A stretch of DNA of 64,000 nt from a virus (lineage: Duplodnaviria > Heunggongvirae > Uroviricota > Caudoviricetes), in IMG/VR virus record IMGVR_UViG_3300025769_000070; one strand, written 5' to 3'. The translations under genes and the position numbers were made by a program. Every line of letters begins with the position of its first letter. Positions within the stretch are counted from its first letter, which is position 1. The notes under the pieces are model-generated. The model saw only the letters and a program-made list of their open reading frames with translations, did not search any database and was not told the DNA's origin. Below, piece by piece: positions 31,601 through 47,328 of this stretch.

Positions 31601-31716
31601 GGATCGTCTGTAGTGAGTAAATCGAAAGGCTTACATAACTCATTTTTATTATAATTAATATTAAGCCAAGCATCATTAAGTTCGGATAATATTTCTACTC
31701 TTAAGCGTTCAGTCAT
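28633..31716 (-). CDS. terL: terminase large subunit interrupted by an intein
   Basis: Walker A GSRGVGKATK is split after K98 by an insertion starting with Cys. The extein carries Walker B DIIADE and the nuclease motifs GVDPA and IAMDAQGGG. Total 1027 aa, about 669 aa extein plus 358 aa intein. Confidence 0.85.
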   Translation of the reverse strand: MTERLRVEILSELNDAWLNINYNKNELCKPFDLLTTDDPEEFYKTFTWLMIQPEYFCFLCKNILNIDLVPFQGLMLEEIWKRKFPMLIGSRGVGKATKCTEPLLTDQGWVRMGDITYNHKVYSRNGKLCNIVGIYPQGKKQVCRLKFADGREIDCCEDHLWVMKKQQKEVTVSTKDIINDGVRFYSSPGKWAYKYKLPLTEPIQYEEKQLPLDPYILGCLLGDGCMTTRTPKIASDDAFIIEQFRTRLDGFEIKKDSSNNNYTIVDIDKQLNKRFSKKGKSFYKRDGNRLVSIIEGMKLNVGCKDKFIPEEYKTSSVEQRMEIVRGLLDTDGSCNKNGAIEFTNSCEKLVKDLIEVLRSLGISCQLKIDDRSGSYSEIRGKQIPRNPYYRVFINTSKQVFKLPRKVERLKNNQTSREKYTSLISAEYVNEFEEMQCISVDSPDHTYITKDYIVTHNTFLLSLYSLMRALIMPERKVVVIGAAFRQSKFLHEYMETIWKKSPILRDLCDSNSGPRRDVDMCRMIINSSTVTAIPVGDGQKIRGLRANDIIADEFASQSRDIFENVIAGFGAVSSSPSEGVKLAAAKNLAKQRGYDLSLLQENFANEDFGNQIVLSGTAYYDFNHFSTYWKRWRSIINSKGDPVKLKETFGEEKVPDSFNWKDYSVIRMPFELIPKGFMDDAQVARSKATVHNGIYLMEFSAVFCTDSAGFFKRSLIEACTGSEQKPIKLPSGDLYFDPSLKGQIDKQYIIGVDPASEVDNFSIVVLEVNSDHRRIAHVWTTTRKEYNERLKRGLTEEGDFYAYCARRIRDLMGAFPTIHIAMDAQGGGIAVAEALHDPVRLLPGELPIWPVIDEDKEKDTDDEQGLHILELCQFAKYDWLSEANHGLRKDLEDKVLLFPRFDPITIGLSIEQDKASNRTYDTLEDCVMEIEALKDELCLIEIRQTPTGRDQWNTPEVKTGVGKKDRLRKDRYSALLMANMAARQARNARIQDSYEIYGGFASVPDSNKKTEAVFLGPNWYTEKMNGVY
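30349..31422 (-). mobile_element. intein with LAGLIDADG homing endonuclease domain inside terL
   Basis: Starts with Cys after the P-loop and ends ...IVTHN followed by Thr. Two LAGLIDADG motifs (LGCLLGDGC and GLLDTDGS). Classic P-loop insertion site for terminase inteins. Confidence 0.75.
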
Positions 31717-35208: not shown

Positions 35209-36000
35209 TTAATCAACAGTATCAGCACTGAGTAATGGCCTGTCTATCATTCCATCAGCATATTGATGATAATCCCCCAGGCGGGCCTTTTCTTGTTGAA
35301 CAGCAAGCCGGAATTTTTCCATATATTGGTTTTGTTCATCTAGCCATTCAGGATCGCGTAGAACCTTTTGAACCAGTCCGTCAAATGTCTCCCTATTATT
35401 TTCCAGCTTTTGAATACGTTGTTCTCTAGTACCTTTTAAGTCTTTAAACATCTTAGACTTTTTATCTTGTAAGTCCTTGAATTCTTTTGAGATAGATTCT
35501 TTAGCCGCACGTAATGTGGCTATTTGTCTTTCCAGATTAAAGATTTGTTCAACATCGCGATCCTCTATTGGCTTCCGTTTTTCATTAACAATTAACTGTT
35601 CAAATTCCGCCACAGTTTGCATAGAGCTTTGTTGTTCCCGTAAAGCCCTGTTCATCAGAATCTCAAGTTTAATCACGTCAATAATCTGAAGTTCTTCAGT
35701 GGGCAGAATATCCTTACGGAATTGCCCCACAATCTGTGACCAGTGATAAAGGAACAATTTGAGTTCCTCTTCGGAAAATTGGGCTTGCAATTCGCTCCAA
35801 TACGGCCTGCTCTTTAAATCATAGGCCGCTTGTACTTCAAAATTCTTCTTAGTACTTGGCCCCTTACCTATCTTACTCAAATGCTTCAGAATAGGATCAA
35901 TCGCCCGATCTAAATTTTCCGCAATTTCTTCTGCCGTAAGTTTATCACAGTTAGTTTCGATATAGTCCCATTCCGCTTTTGATAGTCTTCCTGTTTTCAC
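35209..36000 (-). CDS. coiled-coil regulatory/DNA-binding-like protein (N-terminal HTH-like segment)
   Basis: The N-terminus LSKAEWDYIETNCDKLTAEEIAENL looks HTH-like. A long Q/E/K-rich coiled coil follows. Sits upstream of the sigma-like gene. Confidence 0.35.
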   Translation of the reverse strand: MKTGRLSKAEWDYIETNCDKLTAEEIAENLDRAIDPILKHLSKIGKGPSTKKNFEVQAAYDLKSRPYWSELQAQFSEEELKLFLYHWSQIVGQFRKDILPTEELQIIDVIKLEILMNRALREQQSSMQTVAEFEQLIVNEKRKPIEDRDVEQIFNLERQIATLRAAKESISKEFKDLQDKKSKMFKDLKGTREQRIQKLENNRETFDGLVQKVLRDPEWLDEQNQYMEKFRLAVQQEKARLGDYHQYADGMIDRPLLSADTVD

Positions 36001-36479
36001 CAGTCTTCCCCCAGAATTTCTTTGACAGAATCAATTACCGCTTGTCTACGACCTTTTGTAATAACCACCCCGTTAGACATACGTAAGAAGTCGTTTTTAA
36101 TTAAAGGACTCATTTTTGATAGCAGAAAATCCACCGAATCCTGATTATCAATGCTCTCTTCTGTAAAAAGAGAAAGGGGCTGGATAGAGATGGGTCGCAT
36201 AAGGTTTCTTTTTGTCTCATTAGACTTTTGTCTTTTTTGAGACGATTCCTCTAATCCCAAACGAAAGAAATTGTCGCGTTTAAAGTTTTTGAGTCTATTA
36301 GACATATGGACAGAAATAAAATTTTCTAAAGGCCGGGTTTGATCCCATCTTTCATAAGCCTCTAATCCAAAAATTATTGCTTCCTGTTCTATGTCTTTTA
36401 CATCAAAATAGCCGAAGACGTACTTAGTCGCTAACCTCTTCGCTATCGTCTGGATCATGTTCAGATGTGTCTGGTTCAA
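35997..36479 (-). CDS. sigma-70-family-like transcription factor (probable late-gene regulator)
   Basis: DIEQEAIIFGLEAYERWD...FISVHMSNRLKNFKR resembles sigma region 2. The C-terminal LIKNDFLRMSNGVVITKGRRQAVIDSVKEIL resembles a region-4 HTH. Confidence 0.45.
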   Translation of the reverse strand: MNQTHLNMIQTIAKRLATKYVFGYFDVKDIEQEAIIFGLEAYERWDQTRPLENFISVHMSNRLKNFKRDNFFRLGLEESSQKRQKSNETKRNLMRPISIQPLSLFTEESIDNQDSVDFLLSKMSPLIKNDFLRMSNGVVITKGRRQAVIDSVKEILGEDW

Positions 36480-36639
36480 GTATAGCCTTCGCTTTCATTA
36501 AACATGGGTCTGGTATAAGAAGTTCTAAAGTCACGGCTTTCTTTAACTCTTCAGTTTCTTTTATGAGCATAAAAACTCTCCAGGTAAGGGTATAATCTAT
36601 TATATCCAATTTCTTCTCCAAAAGGTTAATACACCAAAA

Positions 36640-37077
36640 ATGAATTATTTACAAATAGCACTATCGGGAAAAGCGGGAGCGGGAAAATTCGCCAAAGTCT
36701 CAAAAGAAGATTATGGGATGCTGATTCGCTACTCATGGAACTACAGAGATGGTTATGCAATTACTAAGATTAACCGTAAAGAAGTGCGAATGCATCGACT
36801 CGTATTAGGGGTTGAAGATCCCGAAATACTAGTAGACCATAAGGATAGAGATCGACTCAATAACCAAAGGACAAATCTCCGGACATTTACACATACCCAG
36901 AACTCTAATAATAGAACTACCTCTCGTTATATTATAGCTTTTGGCGAGAAGCAGACTGTGGGCGAGTGGGCGGTAGACCCAAGATGCGGATGCTCCTATA
37001 ATGTTTTATTAAAGAGACTGGATAAGGAAATTGATCCAGAGATTGCTATATTGGCTCCTGATGATTCAGGTTCTTAG
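36640..37077 (+). CDS. HNH homing endonuclease
   Basis: HRLV...VDHKDRDRLNNQRTNLR is an HNH_3-type motif. Sits at the boundary between the late and early modules. Confidence 0.7.
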   Translation: MNYLQIALSGKAGAGKFAKVSKEDYGMLIRYSWNYRDGYAITKINRKEVRMHRLVLGVEDPEILVDHKDRDRLNNQRTNLRTFTHTQNSNNRTTSRYIIAFGEKQTVGEWAVDPRCGCSYNVLLKRLDKEIDPEIAILAPDDSGS

Positions 37078-37288
37078 CGGGGTAGTAAGGGTGAGACAAT
37101 TTGGAGAGTGGTTTGGCGAATTTTGTTTGAACCCCCCCGGCCAACAGATTCCTACTACTCCCGAACAAATTACAAGATAAAACCCCCTGTCCTGTCCCCC
37201 TAAGTGTCCTGTCCGAAAATTCAAAAGAATTGAAAATTGATAAACCCTTTGGTAGTAACGACTTAGGTAAAAACCGAAAATTTACCTC

Positions 37289-37316
37289 TTGATAACAAGA
37301 ATCGCCAGCCTATAAT
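37289..37316 (+). promoter_or_regulatory. sigma70-type promoter (TTGATA-16-TATAAT) at start of early module
   Basis: Near-consensus hexamers with a 16-nt spacer, about 45 nt upstream of the first early gene. Confidence 0.5.
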
Positions 37317-37362
37317 TAGGTGCAAGACGGAAACGACACCAAAAACAAAGGAAAAAAGTAAG

Positions 37363-37587
37363 ATGATCACAGTTTGCCTCAATGATGGTCATGTAGTGTA
37401 CGAATTCAACACAGTCACTGAATTCGTCGATGCGTTCCCTGATGGTCTGGACCAGGACAATCTCGACCAGGGCTGTTATGTCAACTGTTCTATCCGTCAG
37501 GCTCAGGAAATAGCTTGGGAGCGAGAAGACCGGAAACGTCGATACAATACCAAGTTGCCATTCGTTGGTCAGCGTTGTCGAGACTAG
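37363..37587 (+). CDS. small early protein, paralog A
   Basis: 74 aa, about 88% identical to the 37995-38219 product (MI(T/K)VCL(N/K)DGHVVYEFNT...). Preceded by a GGA-rich leader. Confidence 0.55.
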   Translation: MITVCLNDGHVVYEFNTVTEFVDAFPDGLDQDNLDQGCYVNCSIRQAQEIAWEREDRKRRYNTKLPFVGQRCRD

Positions 37588-37662
37588 GCTTGACGTTGCT
37601 TGCCAGGTCTGATACAATCGGGCCTGGCTGTTTCCCACTGTCTGATCTCAAGGAATGTTTGA

Positions 37663-37899
37663 ATGCGAAAATCAGTATACCAACTGTCAGCAGGTGATGT
37701 TGTTCGCTGCTTCAATGGTACTGGTGATCAGGTTGTCAGTTGTACGGATATCGTACAACATAACAAGAAGAAGCGAATACTTGTTCTAGTGAACAAGAAG
37801 ACAGGGGTAAGGCGGCGTGTGGTATGGGGCTACTATACAAAGGTCTCCATGCAGCCCATCATTCCAAGTACTGCACCTGCGATCAGTATACGAAAGTGA
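37663..37899 (+). CDS. hypothetical small early protein
   Basis: 78-aa ORF with an AGGA SD; followed by palindrome GCCACTAGTGGC and leader element copy 1. Confidence 0.45.
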   Translation: MRKSVYQLSAGDVVRCFNGTGDQVVSCTDIVQHNKKKRILVLVNKKTGVRRRVVWGYYTKVSMQPIIPSTAPAISIRK

Positions 37900-37911
37900 G
37901 CCACTAGTGGC

Positions 37912-37971
37912 ACCGGCGGAAGCCGAGTCGTCTCACTCACCGCAGGTGTGAGTGAGCGAGACGCAACGGAA
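37912..37971 (+). repeat. conserved intergenic stem-loop/leader element, copy 1
   Basis: ACCGGCGGAAGCCGA-GTCGTCTCACTCAC-CGCAGGT-GTGAGTGAGCGAGAC-GCAACGGAA. Inverted repeat of 8 bp or more, followed by GGA motifs and an ATG about 25 nt downstream. Confidence 0.8.
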
Positions 37972-37994
37972 TAAAATCAACGGAGAATCGAGCG

Positions 37995-38219
37995 ATGATC
38001 AAGGTTTGCCTAAAAGATGGTCATGTAGTGTACGAATTCAACACCATCCCCGAATTTGTCGATGCATTCCCTGATGGCCTAGACCAGGAGAATCTGAACC
38101 AGGGCTGTTACGTGAACTGCACTATCCGTCAGGCTCAAGAGATTGCCTGGGAGCGTGAGGACAGGAAACGTCGATACAATACCAAGCTCCCATTCGTTGG
38201 TCAACGTTGCCGGGACTAG
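37995..38219 (+). CDS. small early protein, paralog B
   Basis: 74 aa, paralog of the 37363-37587 product. Confidence 0.55.
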   Translation: MIKVCLKDGHVVYEFNTIPEFVDAFPDGLDQENLNQGCYVNCTIRQAQEIAWEREDRKRRYNTKLPFVGQRCRD

Positions 38220-38275
38220 GGGCTAGGCTACGGGTTGCAACTTCCGCTTTCTTTTATTCAGGATGGAGTTCTAAA

Positions 38276-38500
38276 ATGAAGCCAATCACTCAGCGACCAA
38301 TCCCAGAGGGTTACACTACTGAATGGGATAACACTATCTGGAATGTGGGTATTGTTTTCCTGTGGTCAGATATTTTCGACGATTATTTGCAATGCGGTCG
38401 AATCACTGTGAAGCCCGGAGATACTTTGGCCGAAGCGTTCGAACGTGAAATGAATGAACCAATGTGGACAGAATTTGAAGTTTTCTTCGTCAACGAATAG
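38276..38500 (+). CDS. hypothetical small early protein
   Basis: ORF 38207-38500; probable start MKPITQRP with a GGATGGAG SD. Confidence 0.45.
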   Translation: MKPITQRPIPEGYTTEWDNTIWNVGIVFLWSDIFDDYLQCGRITVKPGDTLAEAFEREMNEPMWTEFEVFFVNE

Positions 38501-38505
38501 ACAGG

Positions 38506-38706
38506 ATGGAACCAGTGGACCCACGTATCACATATATGGCTATTTTCAATGCCATGTCAATCGGTGACTTCACAATGGCGAGAGTTCACGCCACCGACCT
38601 GAAAGAATGGTTGGACAAAGGTGGATTCTATCCCGACACCTATACAAAAGTGGAGGTGGACGCCTATCTCGCGAGCGTATTGAGACGTACAGTAGGGTAT
38701 GAATGA
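38506..38706 (+). CDS. hypothetical small early protein
   Basis: 66-aa ORF in the operon. Confidence 0.4.
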   Translation: MEPVDPRITYMAIFNAMSIGDFTMARVHATDLKEWLDKGGFYPDTYTKVEVDAYLASVLRRTVGYE

Positions 38707-38721
38707 TCAAAAGCGAAGGCG

Positions 38722-38790
38722 GTCGTGTTGCCCGTTCTTCGCCGGTCGTCCCACTCACAGCAGGTGTGAGTGAGCGGGACGCAACGGAAA
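38722..38790 (+). repeat. conserved intergenic stem-loop/leader element, copy 2
   Basis: ...GGTCGTCCCACTCACAGCAGGTGTGAGTGAGCGGGACGCAACGGAAAC.... ACGGAG then ATG follow downstream. Confidence 0.8.
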
Positions 38791-38814
38791 CAAAACACTA
38801 AACGGAGAACGGCG

Positions 38815-39027
38815 ATGCTTGACATCAAATTGACATCATACGAAAAGCGAATCATCGGCACACTGACCGATGAAGGGCACACACTTTATGTAACCGGAGA
38901 CGGTTGGATCTTTGAAGAATCTTGCGGAGATAAGCACACTTTCCAGTCTTTTCGAAAGTTCTTTGAGTTCTGCGAGTATCGTGAGTCGCAATTGCTGCTC
39001 GTGCGAGAAATGCAGGAGACTTTTTAA
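38815..39027 (+). CDS. hypothetical small early protein
   Basis: MLDIKLTSYEK...; the start follows element copy 2 and a GGAGAACGG SD. Confidence 0.45.
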   Translation: MLDIKLTSYEKRIIGTLTDEGHTLYVTGDGWIFEESCGDKHTFQSFRKFFEFCEYRESQLLLVREMQETF

Positions 39028-39057
39028 ATAACGCCCTTTAGACGGAGATTGAAGAGA

Positions 39058-39236
39058 TGAACGGACCAGAAGCAATCGAGTTTTTCGTAGCGAACGCAAA
39101 TGTCTACAACGAATGGTCAGAAGCTGCTATGTGGCAGCATGTCAGCCACGTCGTTAGAAAATCCCACAAAGAACCAAATCGGGTCTGGACAGTGGAAGAA
39201 CTATCCGCTATGATAGCACAAGCGGAGAACCAGTAA
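39058..39236 (+). CDS. hypothetical small protein (59 aa, below ORF-track cutoff)
   Basis: ATG preceded by GGAGATTGAAGAG. Reads MNGPEAIEFFVANANVYNEW.... Confidence 0.35.
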
Positions 39237-39251
39237 CCCATATGCGAGGTA

Positions 39252-39321
39252 CGGGTGTGTTACCCGTGCTTCGCGGGTCGTCTCACTCACCGCAGGTGTG
39301 AGTGAGCGAGACGCAACGGAA
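39252..39321 (+). repeat. conserved intergenic stem-loop/leader element, copy 3
   Basis: ...GGGTCGTCTCACTCACCGCAGGTGTGAGTGAGCGAGACGCAACGGAAAAC.... Followed by AAGGACGGAAACG then ATG. Confidence 0.8.
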
Positions 39322-39349
39322 AACAACTCAAAACAAAAGGACGGAAACG

Positions 39350-39478
39350 ATGGACGATTTCGATGATGTGACGTGTGAAGAGTTTTTCGACGACGAAAAG
39401 TATTACCGCAGTGTGCCAGATGCTGAGTTTGAGCAATCGGTTCCCTTCTCGTATCAGGTATCACTTTTCTTCGAATAA
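39350..39478 (+). CDS. hypothetical acidic mini-protein (42 aa)
   Basis: MDDFDDVTCEEFFDDEKYY...; the ATG follows element copy 3 and an AAGGACGGAAACG SD. Confidence 0.3.
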   Translation: MDDFDDVTCEEFFDDEKYYRSVPDAEFEQSVPFSYQVSLFFE

Positions 39479-39482
39479 CCGC

Positions 39483-39510
39483 TTGACATTCTCTGTCAAT
39501 GGGCTACAAT
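39483..39510 (+). promoter_or_regulatory. sigma70-type promoter (TTGACA-16-TACAAT)
   Basis: Consensus -35 box and 16-nt spacer. Confidence 0.5.
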
Positions 39511-39551
39511 CCACTTCTCAAACGGAAACTGTCTTTTAGAAGGAAAACACT

Positions 39552-39848
39552 ATGTCGCACACAATCTTCGAAAACGCTTTTGGTAAGATTTCCCATGAAG
39601 TTCGAAGGGATTATGTTATCTCTGATGAAGAACTGTTCGGGATGGTCAGCCGGGACTTCTACAAATCCTTGAACAATCCAGAAGTGACGGGAACGAAATC
39701 AATGCTCAAAAGTCTGGCAAAAGAACAAGGCCAGGTTGTGGAAGAAACACCAGAAGAAATTGCGATTCGCGAAGCAATGGAACGTGAGCAGAGGATTCTT
39801 GCCCATATCAGACGGGTTCAAATCGAATTGCAATGCTGTGAAGATTGA
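39552..39848 (+). CDS. hypothetical small early protein
   Basis: 98-aa ORF preceded by a GAAGGAAAACACT SD. Confidence 0.45.
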   Translation: MSHTIFENAFGKISHEVRRDYVISDEELFGMVSRDFYKSLNNPEVTGTKSMLKSLAKEQGQVVEETPEEIAIREAMEREQRILAHIRRVQIELQCCED

Positions 39849-39901
39849 AGATTGAAGATTGAAGAGGACGGAAACAATCCCCAGAAAAGAAGGAAAGAAC
39901 G

Positions 39902-40066
39902 ATGAAAGACGCTGAACGCCTGATGATCATCCGTGCCCTGGCATTAAATTGTCGGGACAACGCAAAGAATGGGGCAGATGAGGACAATCGTCCACTTCTG
40001 GACCTGATCCATGAGTTAGCGTTTCAGATGGATGTTGAGTACACAAATTTTTCGCTGGGGGAGTAA
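39902..40066 (+). CDS. hypothetical small protein (54 aa)
   Basis: ATG preceded by GAAGGAAAGAACG. Reads MKDAERLMIIRAL.... Confidence 0.35.
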   Translation: MKDAERLMIIRALALNCRDNAKNGADEDNRPLLDLIHELAFQMDVEYTNFSLGE

Positions 40067-40165
40067 TGCTAATAAACGCAATCCAAGACGCGACCCCCTA
40101 CGTAATTGGAACAGGTCTGTTCCTGTTCATAATGACACTTCTAGAAAAGAATGGAAGACTTTAGG

Positions 40166-40345
40166 ATGCTAGTACTGTCAAGAAAAAAAGACGAAAAGAT
40201 CACAATTCAGATTCCCGGAAAACCGGATATCGAAATCATGATCATCGAAACGGGCATCAAGACGCGGGTGGGGATTAAAGCTCCACAAGAATACCAGATC
40301 GTCAGAAACGAACTGATTGGAACGTCAAGAGGGCTTCCAAAATAG
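40166..40345 (+). CDS. csrA: carbon storage regulator CsrA homologue
   Basis: MLVLSRKKDEKITIQ...IMIIETGIKTRVGIKAPQEYQIVRNELI aligns to the CsrA/RsmA consensus MLILTRRxGE...V..GNQVRIGI.APKEV.V.REEI, with a short insertion. Confidence 0.8.
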   Translation: MLVLSRKKDEKITIQIPGKPDIEIMIIETGIKTRVGIKAPQEYQIVRNELIGTSRGLPK

Positions 40346-40437
40346 GTTTCTTGATATCGGTTCTTTGATATGGGGCGGGTGGGGAAATTGTCCCTGCCTG
40401 CCTTTATCTTTTACCAGAAAAATAGCCTGTCTGTTTT

Positions 40438-40497
40438 ACCGGCGGAAGCCGAGTCGTCTCACTCACCGCAGGTGTGAGTGAGCGAGACGCAGCGGAA
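40438..40497 (+). repeat. conserved intergenic stem-loop/leader element, copy 4
   Basis: ACCGGCGGAAGCCGAGTCGTCTCACTCACCGCAGGTGTGAGTGAGCGAGACGCAGCGGAA; about 60 nt near-identical to copy 1. Confidence 0.8.
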
Positions 40498-40616
40498 AAC
40501 AAGACACAAAGGAAAACCAAAAAGTCAGAATTTTCAGCTTGCAAGCCACAATGATTGTGTTACAATGCTCTCTCAATGGAACGGCGACCAACTTTTTCTT
40601 TCATGGGGATGAACGA

Positions 40617-41879
40617 ATGACTAAATGGATCAAGATGCACAATGATGGTGAATTCGACGTTATTACCGCAATTGGTATGCTGGGGGCGTCGGTGAAGATG
40701 GGTGAAGATCCCATTGGTCTCTATGGTTCTGGTATCAAGTACGCTATGGCTCAGGCTTTGCGTATGGGTATCTCGCTGAAGATTTCCGACAAGGGAAATC
40801 TGTACACTCTCACGTCCTTCGAAACTGAGTTTCGGGGGCGACAATTTCAAAGTGTCGGTCTCAAGACAAAGACCGGAAAGATCCATAAAACTGGAATCAC
40901 TACTGATTTCGGTAAAGAAGACTGGACAGATATTTGGTTCATCTTCCGCGAATTTTATTCGAACTGCCTTGATGAAGGCGGATTTCTGGAAATCGTGGAC
41001 GGTATACAAACCAGCGAGTCAGGCGTTGACGTTTTTATCCCGTATACTCCATTCAAGGAAATCGTTGATAACCTGAGTGATTACTTTTGTCCTAAAGATT
41101 TTAAGCTAAAAGTCGGCACGGGACGAGTATTCAAAAAGGGAGTATGGGTTGGGAATATGTCGGTCGATACAGGCTTGGACTTCCAGTCTGATTACATCGA
41201 AATTACTGAAACCCGAACGCTCAACCAATATTGTGCTTGGAGGCGTTTAGAAGGCATTATCGAAAGCTACGCAGAAAAAGAACATTTGGTCGAACTGCTC
41301 AAGCATGAAGAATGTTGGACAGAAATGCCGAACCTATGGTTGTGCGGCGAGAAATGCGAGGAGCATTTGCACGCAGCCCTAGTCGAAGTATATGGCAAAG
41401 ATTATATGATCTGTCCAAATGTGGATTGGATTATCAAAGATGCCATAGAAGTCTACGGAAGGAATCCGGTAGTATTTCCATCGGAATGGAAATTGCCAAC
41501 ATCAAAAATTCAAACGATGCAAGATCTGGCGAATAGTATCATCTTCCGCGATGCGACAGAAGCAGAGCAAAAAGTCATTGATAAAGGAATGAAGGCTTTA
41601 GCATGGATGGACGATGTTCCTAATCCTTTTGATTCCCTTTATAGTGTCAGGATAAAAGACATCAAAGTCAGAATCCTGAAGACAGACGAGAATTGTGGCG
41701 GATTGGCTAAACAAGGTTCCACCGAAATTGCCATCAATTCATCAGTGGTGAGCGGAGATTTTAAGAAGTTTTTGCAAACCCTGATGCACGAGTGCGTTCA
41801 CGCCATCACTGGCGAACAAGACTATACCAGAGGATTCGCTAGCTTCATGGAAAGAGCTTTAGTGTCCTTCTCTGTTTGA
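40617..41879 (+). CDS. hypothetical protein with C-terminal HExxH (metallopeptidase-like) motif
   Basis: ORF 40539-41879; probable start MTKWIKMH with a GGGGA SD. LMHECVHAITGEQDY. A G-rich GLYGSGIKYA motif is also present. Confidence 0.45.
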   Translation: MTKWIKMHNDGEFDVITAIGMLGASVKMGEDPIGLYGSGIKYAMAQALRMGISLKISDKGNLYTLTSFETEFRGRQFQSVGLKTKTGKIHKTGITTDFGKEDWTDIWFIFREFYSNCLDEGGFLEIVDGIQTSESGVDVFIPYTPFKEIVDNLSDYFCPKDFKLKVGTGRVFKKGVWVGNMSVDTGLDFQSDYIEITETRTLNQYCAWRRLEGIIESYAEKEHLVELLKHEECWTEMPNLWLCGEKCEEHLHAALVEVYGKDYMICPNVDWIIKDAIEVYGRNPVVFPSEWKLPTSKIQTMQDLANSIIFRDATEAEQKVIDKGMKALAWMDDVPNPFDSLYSVRIKDIKVRILKTDENCGGLAKQGSTEIAINSSVVSGDFKKFLQTLMHECVHAITGEQDYTRGFASFMERALVSFSV

Positions 41880-42112
41880 TTCCATCCCCGTGGATTGAGT
41901 GGCGGGCATGATGCCCGCTGCTCAATATTTTGACTGGAGGCGAAATGTTCTGCATGTATCTTTCACCGGCAGGAAAACAATTCAATAGAATTGTAAGGGT
42001 TACTGGCGAAGTCGCCGTATGTATTGCGACAGGAAAGAAACGGTTCATTGACCCGATGTTTCTGAGACCAACAGTTTCCGCAGATTGGCAACTCTGAGAT
42101 AAAGGGCTTGAA

Positions 42113-42134
42113 GAGGCCGCTACGGAGCGGCCTC
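42113..42134 (+). terminator. GC-rich hairpin (member of repeated GGCCGCTACGGAGC family), terminator-like
   Basis: GAGGCCGCT-ACGG-AGCGGCCTC, a 9-bp stem. No clean U tract follows. Confidence 0.35.
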
Positions 42135-42205
42135 TGAGGGCCGCTCTGATGTAGACTAACCTGTACGGATGATCGAACAATCTTTGATAATTAAGCTCAA
42201 TTAAG

Positions 42206-42233
42206 TTGCAATGGTCTGCCGATATGATATACT
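42206..42233 (+). promoter_or_regulatory. sigma70-type promoter (TTGCAA-16-TATACT), TTGCAATGG family
   Basis: Shares the TTGCAATGG...GTGACATGAG architecture with the promoters at 44071 and 45353. Confidence 0.45.
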
Positions 42234-42296
42234 AGTGACATGAGACGCGGGGGCAATCAGCCCAACACGGGGTTTTTTCTTCAAAGGAGAATTGTG

Positions 42297-43193
42297 ATGC
42301 AGAATGTTCTTTCAAGTGACGTTGCTGAAACAGTCAAAAAAGAGTTCGATTTCCAGGTCAACAAGTTCCCCTTGTCTGGTCCCGATGGAATGAAGACTCC
42401 CTGTTATGGTCTGTTCCGGTCTGACAATGCGTCTTTCGTTGGTTCTTGCAACAATGCCAAAAGTCGGAACTATATTCCACACCAGACTGACGATGTCATT
42501 GCTCTGGTTGAAGCGTCTTCCACGCTGTTTGATGGTGAAGTCGATGTCACCTGTTTCTTCAATCAGGGGCACTATGTGTCCGTTCAACCAACAATGGACA
42601 AACGCAAAGCCGTGTTCGGCCAAAAGGATAACGTCTTCCCGCGAATCATTATTAACGCGGGATATGATGGTCAGGCTTTCAAAGCGAACATGGGCTACTA
42701 TCGTGACGTTTGCAAGAATCTGAGTATCATGAGAATGGTCAAAGGTACGACTGTTTCGATTCGTCACATGAGCAACCTACGCTCCGAGATGGATGAATTG
42801 ATTGAAACGTTCGGCGTTCTTGGCGAATCGTGGGAAGCTCTGGGGCAAAGAATTGATGCTCTTGAACAAACCAAAGTCTCTTTGGTAGGATTCCTGGAAG
42901 ATGTTTTTGGACCAGTCCCAGAAGAAACGGGACGGGGAAAAACGGTCGCGGAAAATCGTATTGAGAAGATTGTTGGTCGTCTTCTCAACGAACGATTCAA
43001 AACGGGACGACCATTGAGTGAAGGCGTGGCCCCGGAATATTCTGGATGGGAGCTTGCAAATGCTGTGCAGGGATATACTCAACATGATAAGCCCCGGCAT
43101 GGTAATCCTACTGAGTTTCAACGTGCTATCATGGCAATGAATGATCAACACGTCAATAAAGCATTCGAATTGCTTTTATCAATGAGTGCTTAG
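42297..43193 (+). CDS. DUF932-like (phage/plasmid-like) protein
   Basis: ORF 42240-43193; probable start MQNVLSS with an AAGGAGA SD. Reads ...CYGLFRSDN...HQTDDVIALVEA...IIINAGYDGQAFKANMGYYRDVCKNL..., recalled DUF932 signatures. Confidence 0.5.
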   Translation: MQNVLSSDVAETVKKEFDFQVNKFPLSGPDGMKTPCYGLFRSDNASFVGSCNNAKSRNYIPHQTDDVIALVEASSTLFDGEVDVTCFFNQGHYVSVQPTMDKRKAVFGQKDNVFPRIIINAGYDGQAFKANMGYYRDVCKNLSIMRMVKGTTVSIRHMSNLRSEMDELIETFGVLGESWEALGQRIDALEQTKVSLVGFLEDVFGPVPEETGRGKTVAENRIEKIVGRLLNERFKTGRPLSEGVAPEYSGWELANAVQGYTQHDKPRHGNPTEFQRAIMAMNDQHVNKAFELLLSMSA

Positions 43194-43205
43194 AATTGGT
43201 AAGGT

Positions 43206-43240
43206 GGGGGGATGGCGGAAACCCGCCATTCCCCTATCCC
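43206..43240 (+). repeat. palindromic direct repeat flanking HNH gene (left copy)
   Basis: GGGGGATGGCGGAAACCCGCCATTCCCCTAT. Confidence 0.6.
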
Positions 43241-43854
43241 AAAGTCTGAAGTATGTATTGGGCAAAACTTCTTAATTCATCGGGGCTAGCGTCAGATTTC
43301 ATTCGATTGGCTTTATGGCTCAGAATTTGGACATTGCCAATAATATAACCTTTTGTGTTGTCTATTCTGTCAATTGTTGCAGATTCTGATACAATTCGAC
43401 TAGTACCACCATAAGACAGTTCAATTCCCAATATCGGGCAGAACGGAACGTAGATGGAATCTAGATGCTCGCGAGTCAGATTAAACTCCCATCCTTTTTC
43501 TTTTGCTCGCTTTTTTGCGTTTTTCAACCTACCCGCCCATTTGTCATCTTTTTTTCTTTGGGCAATTTGAGCCTTGTTCTTCTCATAATATTCTCTTTGA
43601 TACTTGTCATAAGCTTCTTTTGAGGCATAGCCGTTACGCTGCCAAGCTTCTAACATGGAACGTCTCTTCTTTTGATAAGTTACACGGTTTTCTTTAGCCC
43701 TTTCTTTAGTGTCCAGCAGTTCACAATCATAACAGATAGTCTTTTGATAGTCGTAAAATTCTCCGGTTTTGACCTTGTTAACAATCCTTGGTCGTTGTAT
43801 AATCCTGAAATCTGAGAGGGGTTTATCGACTTGACATTTTCTACACTTTTTCAT
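43234..43854 (-). CDS. HNH-family endonuclease (free-standing, opposite strand to its neighbours)
   Basis: N-terminal CRKC...CYDC zinc finger. C-terminal ATIDRIDNTKGYIIGNVQILSHKANRMK is an HNH_3-like motif. Lone minus-strand gene in the plus-strand module. Confidence 0.6.
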   Translation of the reverse strand: MKKCRKCQVDKPLSDFRIIQRPRIVNKVKTGEFYDYQKTICYDCELLDTKERAKENRVTYQKKRRSMLEAWQRNGYASKEAYDKYQREYYEKNKAQIAQRKKDDKWAGRLKNAKKRAKEKGWEFNLTREHLDSIYVPFCPILGIELSYGGTSRIVSESATIDRIDNTKGYIIGNVQILSHKANRMKSDASPDELRSFAQYILQTLG

Positions 43855-43922
43855 TGTAAATACCCTTGAAAAGAAAATTTGTTCTCAAGGTTATATACAC
43901 CCTTTTCGATTCAAAAAGGACA

Positions 43923-43957
43923 AACGGGGATGGCGGATTTACGCCATTCCCCTATGC
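43923..43957 (+). repeat. palindromic direct repeat flanking HNH gene (right copy)
   Basis: GGGGATGGCGGATTTACGCCATTCCCCTAT. Confidence 0.6.
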
Positions 43958-44070
43958 GAGAGTATATCCTCCATCTTATAAATGGTAGAAAGATTAATTG
44001 GTTCATGTGCGTTCGATTCGCACCTCTCGCACTGACACTGAGTTTTTTCAAAAACTCTAAAGATAACGCT

Positions 44071-44098
44071 TGCAATGGTCGATAATTACAGTACAATG
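44071..44098 (+). promoter_or_regulatory. sigma70-type promoter (TTGCAA-16-TACAAT), TTGCAATGG family
   Basis: TTGCAATGGTCGATAATTACAGTACAATGGTGACATAAAG, near-identical to the promoter at 45353. Confidence 0.5.
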
Positions 44099-44170
44099 GT
44101 GACATAAAGCGATCAGCTTGACCTACAACCAGGCCATCATCTTGGCCGAATCAATCCTGGAGGCTTTGAA

Positions 44171-44458
44171 ATGAAAGACATTATGGTTGGCGGATTCTTT
44201 GTTCTTTTTATTATTGGGGCATTGTTTATTGGTGCAACTAATGTACCACTAGAGCAAGAACCACCAACAGAGCTTCAACAACTACAAACTGAGGTGCGGT
44301 CTTTACGCAACGACCTGAACCAGTTAATCCTTGCATTGCCCGAAGATCCGACCATCATTGTAGATGGTCAAGTGGTAGACGAACATTTTGACTGGAACGT
44401 GTTTCATAACGTGCCGGGGAAAACAGATGATCAAAAAACCAGCGTTTTACCAGATTGA
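44171..44458 (+). CDS. small membrane-anchored protein
   Basis: N-terminal TM helix GGFFVLFIIGALFIGA; Q/L-rich. Confidence 0.45.
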   Translation: MKDIMVGGFFVLFIIGALFIGATNVPLEQEPPTELQQLQTEVRSLRNDLNQLILALPEDPTIIVDGQVVDEHFDWNVFHNVPGKTDDQKTSVLPD

Positions 44459-44837
44459 CCAGTGGAACATGCTTTCACTACTGGAACCGTTTCAAAAGGT
44501 GGACGTATACCGGAACTTGACTTCTGGTCTGTGGAGTGTCAGGCAGAATGGGATTGTTATACTACACGCTGAGTGTATAGCAATTTACAACCCCGAATTT
44601 ATCGTCAGTCAAAAGGGAAGGGCGAGGGTAATTCGGGAACAAAAGAAATACATCCATGCTTATGTTCGGGGCTTTCCTACATTTTTATCTGGGAAAAGGA
44701 CAGGGCCAGTTAATCCAACGGTTTTGACTTATAATCCCTACATTCACGAGAGTTTTGTGGACGAACGGGGGAATCCGGTATATAATGCTGGCATGTGTGT
44801 GTTGCGTCCGGATCATAAAGTTGAGGTAGTCAGATGA
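44427..44837 (+). CDS. hypothetical protein
   Basis: ORF 44388-44837; likely start MIKKPAFYQ with a GGGGAAAACAG SD. Confidence 0.4.
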   Translation: MIKKPAFYQIDQWNMLSLLEPFQKVDVYRNLTSGLWSVRQNGIVILHAECIAIYNPEFIVSQKGRARVIREQKKYIHAYVRGFPTFLSGKRTGPVNPTVLTYNPYIHESFVDERGNPVYNAGMCVLRPDHKVEVVR

Positions 44838-45003
44838 ATGAATATTGGGTAATCATGAAGGCGGCAGGTATTCAACCCTCTTACGTGTATGGTCCATTCA
44901 CATATCAAGAGGCCAGAAAAGAGTATGACCGGCGAACTGATCTGTACGAACAAAACAACCGGGAATTCACAATTCGATTGACAAAGACCGAAATTCTGGC
45001 GTA
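44836..45003 (+). CDS. hypothetical mini-protein (55 aa)
   Basis: ATGA start/stop overlap with the upstream gene. Reads MNEYWVIMKAAGIQPSYVYGPFTYQEARKEY.... Confidence 0.3.
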
Positions 45004-45266
45004 AGCCAGTTGGTATGAGAAAGCTCCTCATACTGTAAAGTGGTAAACGGTGAAGCACGGTCCACTATAATAAAACGGGGTTTCACCATACAATATGGAG
45101 TAGGGGCCACTATTGATAACTGTGGCAGTCAGACCGCAATATCTGACCGGGTTTGCTTTCTTCTTTTCTAGGGAGATTTAAGCACAGAAGAGTAATTAAC
45201 TTCTGAATACCCATGCGGGTTCAATTCCCGCCTACTCCTGCCTTATTCTTTTACTAGGCCGCTACG

Positions 45267-45288
45267 GAGCAGCCGCTGGCGGCTGCTC
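45267..45288 (+). terminator. GC-rich hairpin (GGCCGCTACGGAGCAGCCGCTGGCGGCTGCTC family)
   Basis: GAGCAGCCG-CTGG-CGGCTGCTC, a 9-bp stem. Confidence 0.35.
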
Positions 45289-45352
45289 TGATGCGTGTAT
45301 TCCAGTGAACGTATGTCTTTCTGTTCTTTTTCGGTTTTCTCAAGGTTGGTGC

Positions 45353-45380
45353 TTGCAATGGACGATAACTATAGTATAAT
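45353..45380 (+). promoter_or_regulatory. sigma70-type promoter (TTGCAA-16-TATAAT), TTGCAATGG family
   Basis: TTGCAATGGACGATAACTATAGTATAATGGTGACATAAGAG. Confidence 0.5.
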
Positions 45381-45461
45381 GGTGACATAAGAGACAACGG
45401 GAAAAAAAGCAGAATGGACATTATGACTCAGCAAGCAATTCCATTTGGGGGATGATTCGGC

Positions 45462-45758
45462 ATGAAAAAATATCAACTACGCAATCAGTTAGACTCATCC
45501 AAAACTAGGATACGTGAACTGGAAGCTCAATTAGTTCATCAGCATCATTTTGCTGATGCTAACATCGACAAATGTTCTACTGAGAAATTGTTGGGTTCTG
45601 CTGTCATCCTGGAATTAACTGCTTTAGGTGGCAGAACTATTGTAGCACCTATTGCTATAAGTGACGGGCTATCTCTAGAGACAATTGAAGCATTGAAGGC
45701 CGACATATGCCGATCCTACAAGAATCGTGTTGAGTTCAAACCAAAGGGGATGGAATGA
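45462..45758 (+). CDS. hypothetical protein
   Basis: 98-aa ORF with a GGGGGATGATTCGGC SD region. Confidence 0.45.
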   Translation: MKKYQLRNQLDSSKTRIRELEAQLVHQHHFADANIDKCSTEKLLGSAVILELTALGGRTIVAPIAISDGLSLETIEALKADICRSYKNRVEFKPKGME

Positions 45759-45988
45759 GATCGAAGCCTGTTCCTCACCACACTTTTCCCGGTGGGTATC
45801 CAATGTTCTACTACGTGAAGTCAGATGATGGTCACCTACACAGTTGCCCATCATGTGTCAATCAGAATCGTGTGGGTAGGAATGTGACGAAAGTTGAAGG
45901 TCACATTAACTATGAGGACGACAGTCTAACTTGTGATGTTTGTGAAAAGCGGATAGAATCCGCCTATGGGAGGGAGAATGAAAACTGA
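45755..45988 (+). CDS. zinc-ribbon small protein
   Basis: CPSC...CDVC cysteine pairs. ATGA overlap with the upstream gene. Confidence 0.45.
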   Translation: MRSKPVPHHTFPGGYPMFYYVKSDDGHLHSCPSCVNQNRVGRNVTKVEGHINYEDDSLTCDVCEKRIESAYGRENEN

Positions 45989-46199
45989 AGTTTGGTATCA
46001 ATGGAAAGAATTGATCGAAGGGCGATTGGTTGATGCCGAGTCTAATCCAATGCATAGCGAGACTCCTATAGGCGATTTTCTATTTGATTCACCGGAAGAT
46101 GCGAGGGATTACCTTGACGAATCCTTTGAAGACGAAGTCAAACCGGACTGGATTCTTGTTCGCACAACTTATGATCCCATAGGGGGTTACAATGGCTAA
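45978..46199 (+). CDS. hypothetical acidic protein
   Basis: ORF 45966-46199; probable start MKTEVW after a GGGAGGGAGA SD. Confidence 0.4.
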   Translation: MKTEVWYQWKELIEGRLVDAESNPMHSETPIGDFLFDSPEDARDYLDESFEDEVKPDWILVRTTYDPIGGYNG

Positions 46200-46242
46200 T
46201 AAAAAGAAAAGGCAGGTTTTTAACTAAAATCGCCAAAATACC

Positions 46243-46270
46243 TTGAAATCTCTCTGAGACATGGTACAAT
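46243..46270 (+). promoter_or_regulatory. sigma70-type promoter (TTGAAA-16-TACAAT)
   Basis: Hexamers with a 16-nt spacer. Confidence 0.4.
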
Positions 46271-46567
46271 TGACACAGCGGTGATCTAGTGATGACGATT
46301 ACAATATGATCACCAATGTTGGCTTGACCGCCAGTGTTTGACCGGCAACACAAAAAGTCCGTCTGAGATGTTTCCCAGTTCTTTAAGCTAGACGTTAAAC
46401 GATAGAATGTGGCGTAGAATGTTATAATAGTGTTCACCAGGTTCTGAATCTTTTACAACGTCAGAGAAAGATAAATGATCCGGCGTGTCAACGAAAGTTG
46501 TTAAATTGTTCCACTGCGGTGAGTTCAAACACGTAATCTATCAGTTTTGGTCGTTTACTGAGGTAAC

Positions 46568-46652
46568 AACTAAACGGCCACAGGGGATTTGGTGTATTTG
46601 GTAACACGCCGCTATTTAAGCGAGGCACATCGGTTCGATTCCGATTTTAGTT
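46568..46652 (+). other. tRNA-like element (class-II-like, non-canonical anticodon arm)
   Basis: Perfect 7-bp acceptor pairing AACTAAA/TTTAGTT. T-arm ATCGG-TTCGATT-CCGAT. D-arm GCCA...TGGT with GG. The anticodon arm has only a GTGT/ACAC stem with an 8-nt loop. Confidence 0.3.
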
Positions 46653-46673
46653 TGGAACGCCTGAAATTGAGAA

Positions 46674-46699
46674 GTGAGGTTCGAATCCTTACAATCCCA
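46674..46699 (+). other. tRNA 3'-half-like fragment (T-arm GGTTCGAATCC + acceptor-like tail)
   Basis: TGAGG-TTCGAAT-CCTTA then CAATCCCA. No matching 5' half at tRNA distance. Confidence 0.25.
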
Positions 46700-46718
46700 T
46701 TTGGTATCCTGATTTTGC

Positions 46719-46746
46719 TTGACTGTTCGTGTCAACGTGGTACAAT
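46719..46746 (+). promoter_or_regulatory. sigma70-type promoter (TTGACT-16-TACAAT)
   Basis: Upstream of the gene at 46811. Confidence 0.45.
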
Positions 46747-46810
46747 TCGCATATGAAAAACGTGCTCATCACAGCACTGATTTTGGGCTTCCTTTTGGAG
46801 TGGTTTAGAG

Positions 46811-47086
46811 ATGAAGATTAGCAGAGCAAAAGCGTTAAAACTTATTAAGGCTTCTAACGGGAAGACTTTTGGAGTTGGTTTCATTAAAAAGAACGGGGAG
46901 CAAAGGAATATGAATGCCCGTCTGGGTGTTAAAAAGGGAGTTATTGGTGTGGGGATGAAATACGATCCATCAGAACATGATTTGATCACCGCTTTCGATA
47001 TGAAGAAAGACGGTTTTCGTATGATCAACCTTAACACTCTTTTCAGACTTTCAACCAAAAAGAAAACTTACGAAATCGTAGATTAG
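46811..47086 (+). CDS. hypothetical basic protein
   Basis: 91-aa ORF with a GGAGTGG SD. Confidence 0.45.
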   Translation: MKISRAKALKLIKASNGKTFGVGFIKKNGEQRNMNARLGVKKGVIGVGMKYDPSEHDLITAFDMKKDGFRMINLNTLFRLSTKKKTYEIVD

Positions 47087-47091
47087 GGGGG

Positions 47092-47316
47092 ATGGTGGAA
47101 GAAGAACTTGAAGAAATCAGAGAAAGAATAAAAAGGCAGCACCTTAACTATCTATGGCAAGAAGATCACATGATGGAAATCATCATGCAAATTTGTCGAG
47201 AACAGGATGATGATCGAGAAGCTGTTAAAAATGTTATCAAGTCTACTATCTCTTTGGCATATTCGACAGGAGCCGCTGACGCCACTGAGATGACTATTGA
47301 ATTACTCAATAAATAG
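47092..47316 (+). CDS. hypothetical acidic protein
   Basis: 74-aa ORF with an AGGGGGG SD. Confidence 0.45.
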   Translation: MVEEELEEIRERIKRQHLNYLWQEDHMMEIIMQICREQDDDREAVKNVIKSTISLAYSTGAADATEMTIELLNK

Positions 47317-47328
47317 GATCAGATTGAA

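Follow-up and report, generated by a model that had tools for sequence, protein, structure and literature searches.

What does a hairpin do that recurs four times, always on the same strand, among the small early genes of a phage? The question is raised by a stretch of 64,000 nucleotides (hereafter the window), IMG/VR record IMGVR_UViG_3300025769_000070, from a virus of class Caudoviricetes. The window is that of an uncultured siphovirus-like phage, and an array of repeated elements, here named E (copies E1 to E4), sits at the start of its early arm. Each element is built around a hairpin, P2, which an upstream hairpin, P1, nearly always precedes. With a probability of about 35%, we regard E as a strand-specific punctuation mark for RNA processing and stability, placed between cistrons in the early (host-takeover) arrays of an uncultured lineage of marine phages. 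As its likeliest role we infer that of an intercistronic processing and stability signal doubling as a recombination joint; other roles than those discussed here take the remaining probability. Both the joint and an ambiguity as to the strand on which P2 acts go beyond an earlier note on this DNA, which was written from the window alone.

That note had described four copies of the element and all of them were recovered. The sequence GTGAGTGAGCGAGAC occurs with three mismatches or fewer at 37948, 38766, 39298 and 40474, always on the + strand, against 0.71 matches expected, and none of 100 shuffles of the 64 kb reached four. A repeat search delimited the same copies as a four-member, 78-nt family (37906-37983, 38724-38801, 39256-39333 and 40432-40509) with 76-83% identity to the reference copy. 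A covariance model scored them at 76.7-82.5 bits (calibrated E of 1e-19 to 1e-21), and a scan of the window with filters off revealed nothing else above 14 bits. Every copy folds alike into the bulged hairpin CGUCYC.ACUCAC...GUGAGUGAGCGRGACG, in which a U-A pair of copies 1, 3 and 4 is replaced by a compensatory C-G in copy 2. The two subfamilies were likewise found again, copies 1 and 4 having the 5' flank ACCGGCGGAAGCCGAG in common and copies 2 and 3 the flank GTGTTRCCCGTNCTTCGCSGG, as were the two GGA motifs after the copies and the lack of a U-tract after P2, hence not a canonical terminator. A position just before four start codons was only partly borne out: P2 ends 31, 33 and 36 nt before an ATG in E1-E3, but 127 nt before the ATG at 40617 in E4, where a promoter (40539-40566) intervenes. 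Placement relative to stop codons is at least as regular, the copies lying 29, 40, 42 and 109 nt downstream of one (Table 1).

Outside the window, the exact 21-mer of the core (one N) was present in 38 marine or estuarine metagenome contigs, designated below by L numbers, which makes 50 exact-core instances with those of the window. A search of these 38 contigs and the window with the covariance model R1 returned 79 matches at E<1e-3, 55 of them distinct. Since about 30 of these matches do not fit the search pattern, the ascertainment bias on the core is removed. GTDB species genomes contained no match to the exact 21-mer of the core and IMG/VR none to an exact 25-mer. In IMG/VR, a gapped core pattern gave 17 loci that the model scored at 20.8 bits or less, that is, at chance level, and a pattern for P1 and the linker gave five unrelated loci; both sets were discarded. 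A nucleotide search of INPHARED with window positions 37300-41000 found no match. Scanning the window against Rfam 15 at gathering thresholds returned a transfer RNA (tRNA) only, and scanning 37800-40650 at E<=10 returned chance-level matches only, with 12-20 bits against cut-offs of 38-59. Homologues of the protein of early gene A' fell into 10 clusters, which comprised close relatives and an E-less sister lineage and contained no new hairpin types.

Comparison of the copies revealed strong constraint on pairing. Across the 55 distinct copies, 97.1% of the P2 alignment cells were paired and double changes were observed at seven of its 12 pairs. In the lower helix (alignment columns 18-22 with 48-52) the proportion rose to 99.3%, with double-sided changes at four of the five pairs (CG/UA, UA/CG, CG/AU/UA and GC/UA/CG); none of 500 shuffles reached the observed covariation score, and slid controls were 20-52% paired. 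RNAalifold recovered the same hairpin. Such covariation indicates that the P2 hairpin itself is selected. Additionally, different stems occur within one genome, such as CGTCTC/GAGACG and CGTCCC/GGGACG in the window or CGTTGC and CGTAGC in L020/L024, and the spacing of the conserved arms ranges from 7 to 15 nt among variants. The coexistence of stems and the change in arm distance point to an intramolecular hairpin and exclude a dimeric DNA operator.

A single architecture accommodates all variants: a lower helix of 5-6 bp, a 1x1 mismatch, an upper helix of 3-5 bp and a variable apex. The 1x1 position is mostly A.C, with G-C in L006:2014 and L035:1523, A-U in L004:10401 and U.C in L021:579, and the mismatch context is always C-A-C/G-C-G. 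The upper helix appears as CUCAC/GUGAG, CUCC/GGAG, CCC/GGG or CGCC/GGCG; its covariation was read by eye, and MAFFT could not align the hairpins designated type 3. An unpaired ...GA or GAA forms an internal loop on the 3' side of P2. The apical mini-hairpin varies in length and sequence (loops ATTTCT, TCGGCT and GGTA) and the helices and flanks persist, the latter including a conserved unpaired C-Y-G-N-T before the hairpin and R-G-A-R after it, with an invariant G-A 6-7 nt beyond the stem. In all, P2 has a stem of 12-16 bp and a loop of at least 4-11 nt and folds with about -13 to -22 kcal/mol. This register, which is also the choice of RNAalifold, fits all variants including L021:579, L035:1523 and type 3; an alternative one with 7 bp and an AGCG bulge fits types 1 and 2 only and was abandoned. 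An extension helix (columns 13-15 with 56-58) was rejected as well: it is 74% paired, and the counts at its middle pair (columns 14/57: UA 7, CG 4, UG 3, CA 13) match those expected under independence (7.4, 4.4, 2.6 and 12.6). Resemblances to a K-turn, a hammerhead core (CUGAUGA/GAAA), group II domain V, a tRNA-like minihelix and boxA all break at invariant positions.

P1 is not conserved between subfamilies. In the largest one it is a 7-bp GC-rich hairpin, CCGCCUC-loop-GGGGCGG, which has + strand G.U pairs, is followed by CUAUUCUCU and was flagged as terminator-like. In the window it is either a small GGAA-loop hairpin (E1 and E4) or a long stem (E2 and E3), in both cases without a U-tract. 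The terminator scan does not report P2, which continues into GCAACGGAA or GGACAGAAC with no U-tract, and in the L004 lineage it flags P1, not P2. Two adjacent hairpins in early transcripts could recall antitermination, P1-P2 RNA modifying the polymerase in the manner of HK022 put or loading an N-like factor as at lambda nut, so that inter-cassette terminators are read through. In line with this, terminator-like P1 hairpins recur along the arrays, a copy in contig L024 is located in the long leader that follows the first early promoter, the C-terminus of the first early protein (A/A') is rich in Arg, and the presence of E in an element without detectable phage-related protein (see below) fits a host-polymerase target. 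Yet P2 follows the adjacent P1 instead of preceding it, P1 differs between subfamilies, its window versions lack U-tracts, and neither boxA nor boxB similarity was seen. Also, put and nut sites are not known to occur in many copies per operon, as E does. This function appears improbable.

The genomic context is that of an intergenic element lying between small open reading frames (ORFs, 40-100 aa) every 0.4-1.2 kb, with more ORF length on the strand of E in 58 of 72 distinct contexts. For E1-E3, the promoter scan found no promoter-like site from P2 to the next start codon. The only matches near these three copies were weak (9/12), one at 38680-38707, overlapping the end of gene D, and one on the minus strand at 37913-37885. 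The sole promoter near E4 is 48 nt downstream, outside the repeat. Sigma70, extended -10, extracytoplasmic function-like (GGAAC/CGTC) and sigma54 motifs were sought by eye in or across E, and none was correctly spaced. As the flanking genes are co-directional and no promoter intervenes, E1-E3 are expected to be transcribed within a polycistronic early mRNA. In the early array of L004, sigma70 promoter cassettes (TTGACAAGTCCTGGGCATGACGTTATAAC) alternate with P1+E modules every two to four genes, and in L024 a promoter and an AT-rich stretch with iterons precede an E copy within a long leader. E is thus found in a long leader, between cistrons or upstream of promoters, and such varied positions mean that it is not a fixed promoter accessory. 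With E4 and several relatives located upstream of promoters, E is moreover better described as intercistronic or 3'-side than as a leader in the strict sense. Hairpins of type 1 and type 3 precede the same downstream gene in different genomes, which speaks for functional interchangeability.

Taken together, this placement and the selected hairpin suggest the following course of events. E would be transcribed inside the polycistronic early mRNA, where the P2 hairpin, at -20 kcal/mol, would form and be specifically recognised as a processing and stability signal, like the RNase III sites of T7 early mRNA. A double-strand- or hairpin-specific endonuclease, or a bound protein, could then uncouple the cistrons. 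After processing, P1 and P2 would stay on the upstream message as a protective 3' structure, and the downstream message would begin near the ACGGAAAC leader, a separate A-rich module with the Shine-Dalgarno (SD) sequence. Processing by RNase III/E, one of the roles that the earlier note had listed, is plausible by comparison with these T7 sites.

Several observations weigh against this proposal. The RNase III-like step is put forward by analogy only. About 28 nt of the element are invariant across lineages whose neighbouring proteins are 36-75% identical, and a generic stabilising hairpin needs no such invariance, so that a specific reader is required. E lies upstream of a promoter, at variable distance, in E4 of the window and at L032, L006:2014 and L031:321; copies of this kind, some of which follow terminators, may be covered by little read-through RNA. 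An integrative element that carries E (contig L012, see below) has no detected protein similarity to the window in its visible 6 kb. Finally, the non-Watson-Crick cells of P2 are A.C or C.A 14 times, G.U once and something else four times, and the minus-strand fold of P2 is the more stable in 26 of 30 variants, a combination suggestive of the signature expected if selection acted on the template strand.

This last point deserves attention, as the A.C cells of P2 would be G.U (or G.T) wobbles on the template strand; unlike P2, P1 and a downstream hairpin P3 carry + strand G.U pairs. Under the single architecture, one conserved position and one further position account for the A.C cells, so that the strand signal is suggestive only, and the A.C conserved in the sense RNA could itself be the recognised feature. 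In general terms, it is unlikely that P2 is read as single-stranded DNA (ssDNA) of the template strand, whether as a hairpin promoter or priming signal or as the site of a structure-specific recombinase. If it were, the early region would be an integron-like or N4-like array of self-contained cassettes, and a shared 'plug' would let mobile genetic elements of marine Planctomycetaceae, without protein similarity in the available sequence, swap host-takeover and anti-defence genes.

The more specific version of this explanation takes P2 for a template-strand DNA hairpin behind a terminator, acting as an N4-type promoter or as an ssDNA initiation or priming site that makes each cassette self-sufficient. 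The interchangeable position of E and promoters speaks for it. The sister lineage, whose A' is 78% identical, has no E, and sigma70 promoter cassettes fill the equivalent slots; likewise, a sigma70 promoter cassette occupies the E slot of the window paralogue, gene A. E and promoter cassettes are therefore interchangeable in position. The order of a terminator-like P1 followed by E also mimics the terminator-promoter order of the T4-type promoter-early stem-loop (PeSL) modules (PMC4122927), and the invariant G-A after the stem is a further feature in its favour. However, the 64 kb, an incomplete genome with many ORFs without family, yielded no phage RNA polymerase, and strong sigma70-like promoters already serve the region. 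The giant ORF of the late arm was considered as a virion RNA polymerase and dismissed, since it gave only tape-measure matches in Pfam and PHROG and has no PDB relative. N4 hairpin promoters have a stem of 5-7 bp and a 3-nt loop, unlike the stem and loop of P2. Moreover, the A.C cells amount to about two independent conserved positions, and E1-E3 are transcribed through anyway. We find a DNA hairpin promoter hard to favour on this balance.

Another interpretation makes P2 an operator for a specific RNA-binding protein, either of the phage (a small early protein or CsrA, for instance) or of the host, which would control translation or stability of the downstream cassette. Conserved helices, a mismatch, a GA loop and a free apex are typical of protein-recognised hairpins, and P2 precedes three start codons by 31-36 nt. 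The earlier note had proposed CsrA, of which a homologue is encoded before E4. Homologues of csrA (36-49% identical, Pfam-positive) are indeed kept in six divergent E-bearing contigs (L028, L006, L008, L002, L038 and L004), that of L004 being located at 9995-10141 on the minus strand. The motif ACGGARA is also concentrated in early leaders: nine of its 18 window matches fall within 2.5 kb (37327-39874), all on the + strand and all in leaders. Window leaders present ACGGAA plus ACGGAG, the second at the SD sequence. Against the hairpin as a CsrA target, however, the P2 loop is AGGU, not GGA, and unrelated loops replace it in variants, so P2 itself is not a CsrA-type site. The GGA leader exists without P2, in the form GACGGAAAC...AAGGA behind each of the promoters 37289 and 39483 and ahead of gene J (about 39866), and in other lineages the 3' flank is CAGAAC without GGA and the SD sequence is AAGGGGAAAG. 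E4 and other copies precede no start codon, and the L012 element has no homologue of the window early proteins in its visible 6 kb. An operator function is thus rather doubtful. The 'modular cis-regulatory RNA unit' of the earlier note stands insofar as E is a modular, conserved and structured early cis-element, as covariation among the 55 distinct copies indicates, but its GGA leader is a separate module. An interaction of CsrA with that leader is a reasonable candidate and a separate hypothesis from the hairpin.

Evidence of a different kind came from gene order. This order is B-E-[A'CD]-E-[FG]-E-H in the window, L016 and L036, whereas four contigs of 95-98% identity that come from other samples (L023, L010, L141 and L143) show B-E-[FG]-E-[A'CD]-E-H. 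The elements of the swapped-order relatives are chimeras of window flanks and cores with breakpoints inside E, the crossover being found on the left side of the core at one junction but on the right side at another. Since crossover positions differ, homologous exchange fits better than a fixed site-specific cut. Of the flank clusters defined at 74 elements with both flanks, seven upstream and 10 downstream ones are each joined to two or more partners on the other side. E, a near-identical repeat of 60-90 nt, bounds the shuffled multi-gene cassettes and is absent from junctions inside them. Comparison of these genomes shows E to be the crossover point for permutation and exchange of cassettes within and between genomes.

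It could consequently be asked whether E is primarily a recombination device, be it the target of a structure- or site-specific recombinase or nuclease, similar to an integron attC or to the landing site of a homing endonuclease, or a linker kept for cassette exchange. The breakpoints inside E, the 17 flank clusters with alternative partners and the restriction of E to cassette bounds are compatible with this, as are the unpaired bases and variable apex of the hairpin, the HNH genes nearby and the occurrence of E in mobile elements without detectable protein similarity in the available sequence. Against it, variable crossover positions fit homologous recombination over a fixed cleavage point, and selection on pairing is not needed for plain homology. 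The flanks contain no attC R''/R' boxes and no integron-type integrase was found, that of L012 belonging to an ordinary xis-int pair at tRNA-Asn. Recombination as the primary role therefore seems a weak candidate.

The L012 contig offers a lead to the host. Its first 6 kb (1-6092) are an integrative element at the tRNA-Asn(GTT) of a marine Planctomycetaceae genome; this element carries an HNH endonuclease, an E copy, an HTH_17 excisionase-like gene and a tyrosine integrase. The E copy (3961-4027) is about 520 nt upstream of the excisionase-like gene and of the integrase, which abut tRNA-Asn. From the tRNA onward, L012 is 99.8% identical to a marine Planctomycetaceae metagenome-assembled genome without the 6-kb insert, and the empty integration site is visible in metagenome-assembled genome contigs L056 and L057. 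A model search of 1.16 Mb of Planctomycetaceae loci gave no E match: E is carried by mobile elements, not by the host chromosome. Its presence in mobile elements without detectable protein similarity in the available sequence suggests a reader that is encoded by the host or widely shared. For the window phage itself, infection of Planctomycetaceae is a lead only.

Distribution among mobile elements could also reflect a selfish or neutral repeat, similar to miniature inverted-repeat transposable elements (MITEs) or repetitive extragenic palindromes, or a mimic of CRISPR repeats (RNA anti-CRISPR), with no role in the expression of neighbours. E is multi-copy and intergenic, and its palindromic unit of ~35 nt with a ...GAAAC-like 3' flank would suit such a mimic. 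It has, however, no terminal inverted repeats or target duplications, and its outer stems vary around a conserved inner part, which is the reverse of a MITE. No GTDB genome contains the exact core, hence no host array, and no Rfam CRISPR-DR match was obtained. Strict orientation to genes and placement at cassette boundaries argue in the same direction, and we consider this explanation very improbable. A small GTG-initiated ORF within the element (MSETQRK...) was also discarded, being in frame with the next gene in two of the four copies only and having no SD sequence.

Table 1. Coordinates of E copies, genes, promoters and associated features (window positions unless a contig is named)
Feature	Position	Strand	Basis or remarks
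Sigma70-like promoter TTGATA-16-TATAAT with hairpin-less leader GACGGAAACGACACCAAAAACAAAGGAAAA, like the E 3' tail	37289..37362	+	scan, repeat family
Gene A	37363-37587	+	behind promoter 37289; gene calls, Pfam
Gene B	37663-37899	+	behind promoter 37590
E1 P1, small hairpin CGGC-GGAA-GCCG	37914..37925	+	fold; identical sequence ahead of E4
E1 P2, CGTCTC A CTCAC CGCAGGTGTGA GTGAG C GAGACG	37929..37963	+	76.7 bits, fold; 29 nt after gene B stop (37899), 31 nt before ATG 37995
E1 3' flank and leader, ACGGAA and ACGGAG Shine-Dalgarno	37964..37994	+	
Genes A', C, D	A' from 37995	+	after E1
Cassette [A' C D]	37995..38706	+	bounded by E1 and E2
E2 P1	38713..38742	+	fold, z = -2.9 for 38707-38783
E2 P2, CGTCCC...GGGACG, compensatory variant, loop base A	38747..38781	+	82.5 bits; 40 nt after stop 38706, 33 nt before ATG 38815
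Genes F, G	F from 38815	+	after E2
Cassette [F G]	38815..39236	+	bounded by E2 and E3
E3 P1, 14-bp stem plus ACCC/GGGU, abuts P2	39236..39278	+	fold, z = -6.5
E3 P2	39279..39313	+	81.7 bits; 42 nt after stop 39236, 36 nt before ATG 39350
Gene H	from 39350	+	after E3
Sigma70-like promoter TTGACA-16-TACAAT with hairpin-less leader containing AAACGGAAAC	39483..39551	+	
Genes I, J, K, csrA	csrA 40166-40345	+	after promoter 39483
Phage csrA homologue	40166..40345	+	last gene of operon ending before E4; Pfam CsrA 3.9e-13
Terminator-like hairpin, then TATCTTTTAC T-rich tail	40372..40404	+	after csrA, before E4; scan and fold
E4 P1, small hairpin	40440..40451	+	fold
E4 P2, no adjoining start codon	40455..40489	+	76.9 bits
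Sigma70-like promoter TTGCAA-16-TACAAT	40539..40566	+	downstream of E4, then 420-aa gene at 40617
Second promoter cassette in L004	13521-13490 and 12188-12158	-	
Second promoter cassette in L024	9828-9860 and 10073-10101		

A sharp split in composition divides the window into two arms. Genes of the late arm (1-36.5 kb, about 36% GC) are on the minus strand, with about 35-39% GC along the arm and negative GC skew, and those of the early arm, from 36.6 kb, are on the + strand, with 42-47% GC and positive skew (composition compared between 1-36000 and 36000-50000). The promoter scan found many near-consensus sigma70-like promoters in the early arm. The minus-strand arm encodes a tape-measure ORF, tail fibres and the large terminase, the latter at most 26% identical to that of any cultured phage. 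This terminase (28633-31716, minus strand, 1027 aa) contains a LAGLIDADG/homing-endonuclease insert at about residues 308-394, which is probably an intein, given the Intein_splicing annotation of relatives. The giant ORF (3-6779, minus strand, running off the window) exceeds 2259 aa; tape-measure families match its first ~620 residues and a short C-terminal stretch (Pfam, PHROG), the rest having no family match and no PDB relative. A very long tail or extra domains would follow from such an ORF. The first gene of the late arm (35997-36479) has a weak Sigma70_r2 match (E 0.0013) and may encode a sigma-like factor with which the phage transcribes its late genes.

Two free-standing HNH homing-endonuclease genes are found at 36640-37077 and 21914-23524, one of which lies near the E array, where the late and early arms diverge. 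The 74-aa early genes A and A' are a tandem paralogous duplication (37341-37588 and 37973-38220, 84% identical over 248 nt), gene A behind a sigma70-like promoter and A' behind E1. The Arg-rich C-terminus of their product is WEREDRKRRYNTK, and homologues are present in 11 E-bearing loci (15 matches). A tandem repeat, (TGAAGAT)x3 at 39838-39860, covers the stop codon of gene I and is closely followed by the gene J leader, ACGGAAAC, which has no hairpin. Downstream of the array, the 420-aa protein (40617-41879) has a weak C-terminal SprT-like zincin motif (HECVH) and is followed by a DUF932 protein (42240-43193); this pair is kept beside the E array in relatives and may have anti-restriction-type early functions. 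A single tRNA-Leu(TAA) gene is located at 49556-49641, in the early/middle arm.

Other conserved intergenic sequences were noticed in the contigs. A second cassette, which alternates with E, consists of the sigma70 promoter TTGACA-AGTCCTGGGCATGACGT-TATAAC-TGCCCA with an internal inverted repeat GGGCA...TGCCC. In the early arm of relatives, long tracts rich in A and containing repeated TCTGAACAGATCTGAACAG units are found upstream of an E copy (10275) in L024 (10100-10270) and also in L014, L020, L026, L013 and L019; they have the look of an origin or iteron region, or of an array of operators. Contig L148, of the E-less sister lineage, contains repeated PeSL-like modules at 160-540, 760-845, 1081-1260 and 1750-1925. 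These comprise a CTTGCAG-N17-TATAAT promoter joined to a conserved leader TCGCTCACACAAGTCAAC, a promoter inside a terminator-like hairpin and a repeated hairpin-plus-promoter module of ~180 nt.

Several consequences can be drawn from these data. The mismatch, GA loop and flanks of P2 are a precise target for finding the reader, be it an RNase, an RNA-binding protein or a polymerase. Were the processing reading true, E would be usable as a portable insulator or punctuation part. The shuffling of cassettes is among the clearest examples in natural populations, as both orders coexist at 95-98% identity in several samples. The element integrated in Planctomycetaceae is a host lead for a lineage without cultured relative (TerL at most 26% identical).

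Known systems offer partial parallels. Integron attC sites are hairpins between co-oriented cassettes, with R'' (RYYYAAC) and R' (GTTRRRY) boxes. E resembles them in lying between co-oriented small cassettes and in its conserved base, variable apex and unpaired bases, and also in a pairing signature that favours the non-coding strand and a permuted cassette order. It differs in its C-Y-G-N-T and R-G-A-R/AAC flanks, which show no R''/R' consensus and no covarying pairing. No IntI was found, no Phage_integrase match was present among the window ORFs scanned, crossovers vary, and E cassettes are multi-gene, some with their own promoters. With CsrA/RsmA sites, the window leaders have in common two A(N)GGA motifs, one of them at the SD sequence, and a phage csrA in the same module; in contrast to such sites, the motifs belong to a leader also found without hairpin, are not kept in other E lineages and are missing from the P2 loop.

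The early RNase III sites of T7 and T3 are irregular hairpins, with an internal loop or mismatch, that occupy the leader and intercistronic positions of the early polycistronic mRNA; those of one genome are related, and they leave protective 3' stems. The E hairpin, with its internal loop and mismatch and its leader and intercistronic placement, resembles them, the cleavage of E being putative. No sequence similarity was seen, though, and E is shorter (about 12-16 bp in total) and coexists with many internal promoters.

In T4-type phages, PeSLs consist of a stem-loop followed by an expression signal, SD sequence and ATG, between small ORFs of early or hyperplastic regions (PMC2839356; PMC4122927). 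They are found at indels, replacements and ORF displacements between close relatives, for which excision and re-insertion of mini-circles was proposed (PMC4122927). E1-E3 and most relatives likewise have P1/P2 on the 5' side and SD sequence and ATG on the 3' side, and E is found at indels, replacements or displacements between closely related genomes. The sister lineage L148 does possess PeSL-like promoter cassettes. By analogy, homologous recombination through mini-circles of PeSL type would explain the [A'CD]/[FG] swap. However, E is without the sigma70 promoter that defines a PeSL and for this reason is not one. Its conserved part is a hairpin with covariation and invariant nucleotides, whereas PeSL stem-loops are simple and terminator-like, and the phage lineage that carries it is siphovirus-like and unrelated.

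In Cluster K mycobacteriophages, ESAS/SAS are inverted repeats of 17 bp accompanied by a 13-bp SAS consensus upstream of starts (PMC3203893); they were compared by their described architecture only, without alignment of consensus sequences. They also combine imperfect inverted repeats, a variable spacer and a start-associated leader at a subset of non-structural genes in one orientation; in contrast to E, their half-sites are conserved in sequence, neither compensatory stem variation nor cassette shuffling is reported, and the host phylum is another (PMC3203893). A covariation-supported motif that is absent from Rfam and without match in cultured phages thus joins PeSL, ESAS and T7 RNase III sites among the elements that organise early regions, E being most like PeSL in genome dynamics, T7 RNase III sites in placement and ESAS in architecture.

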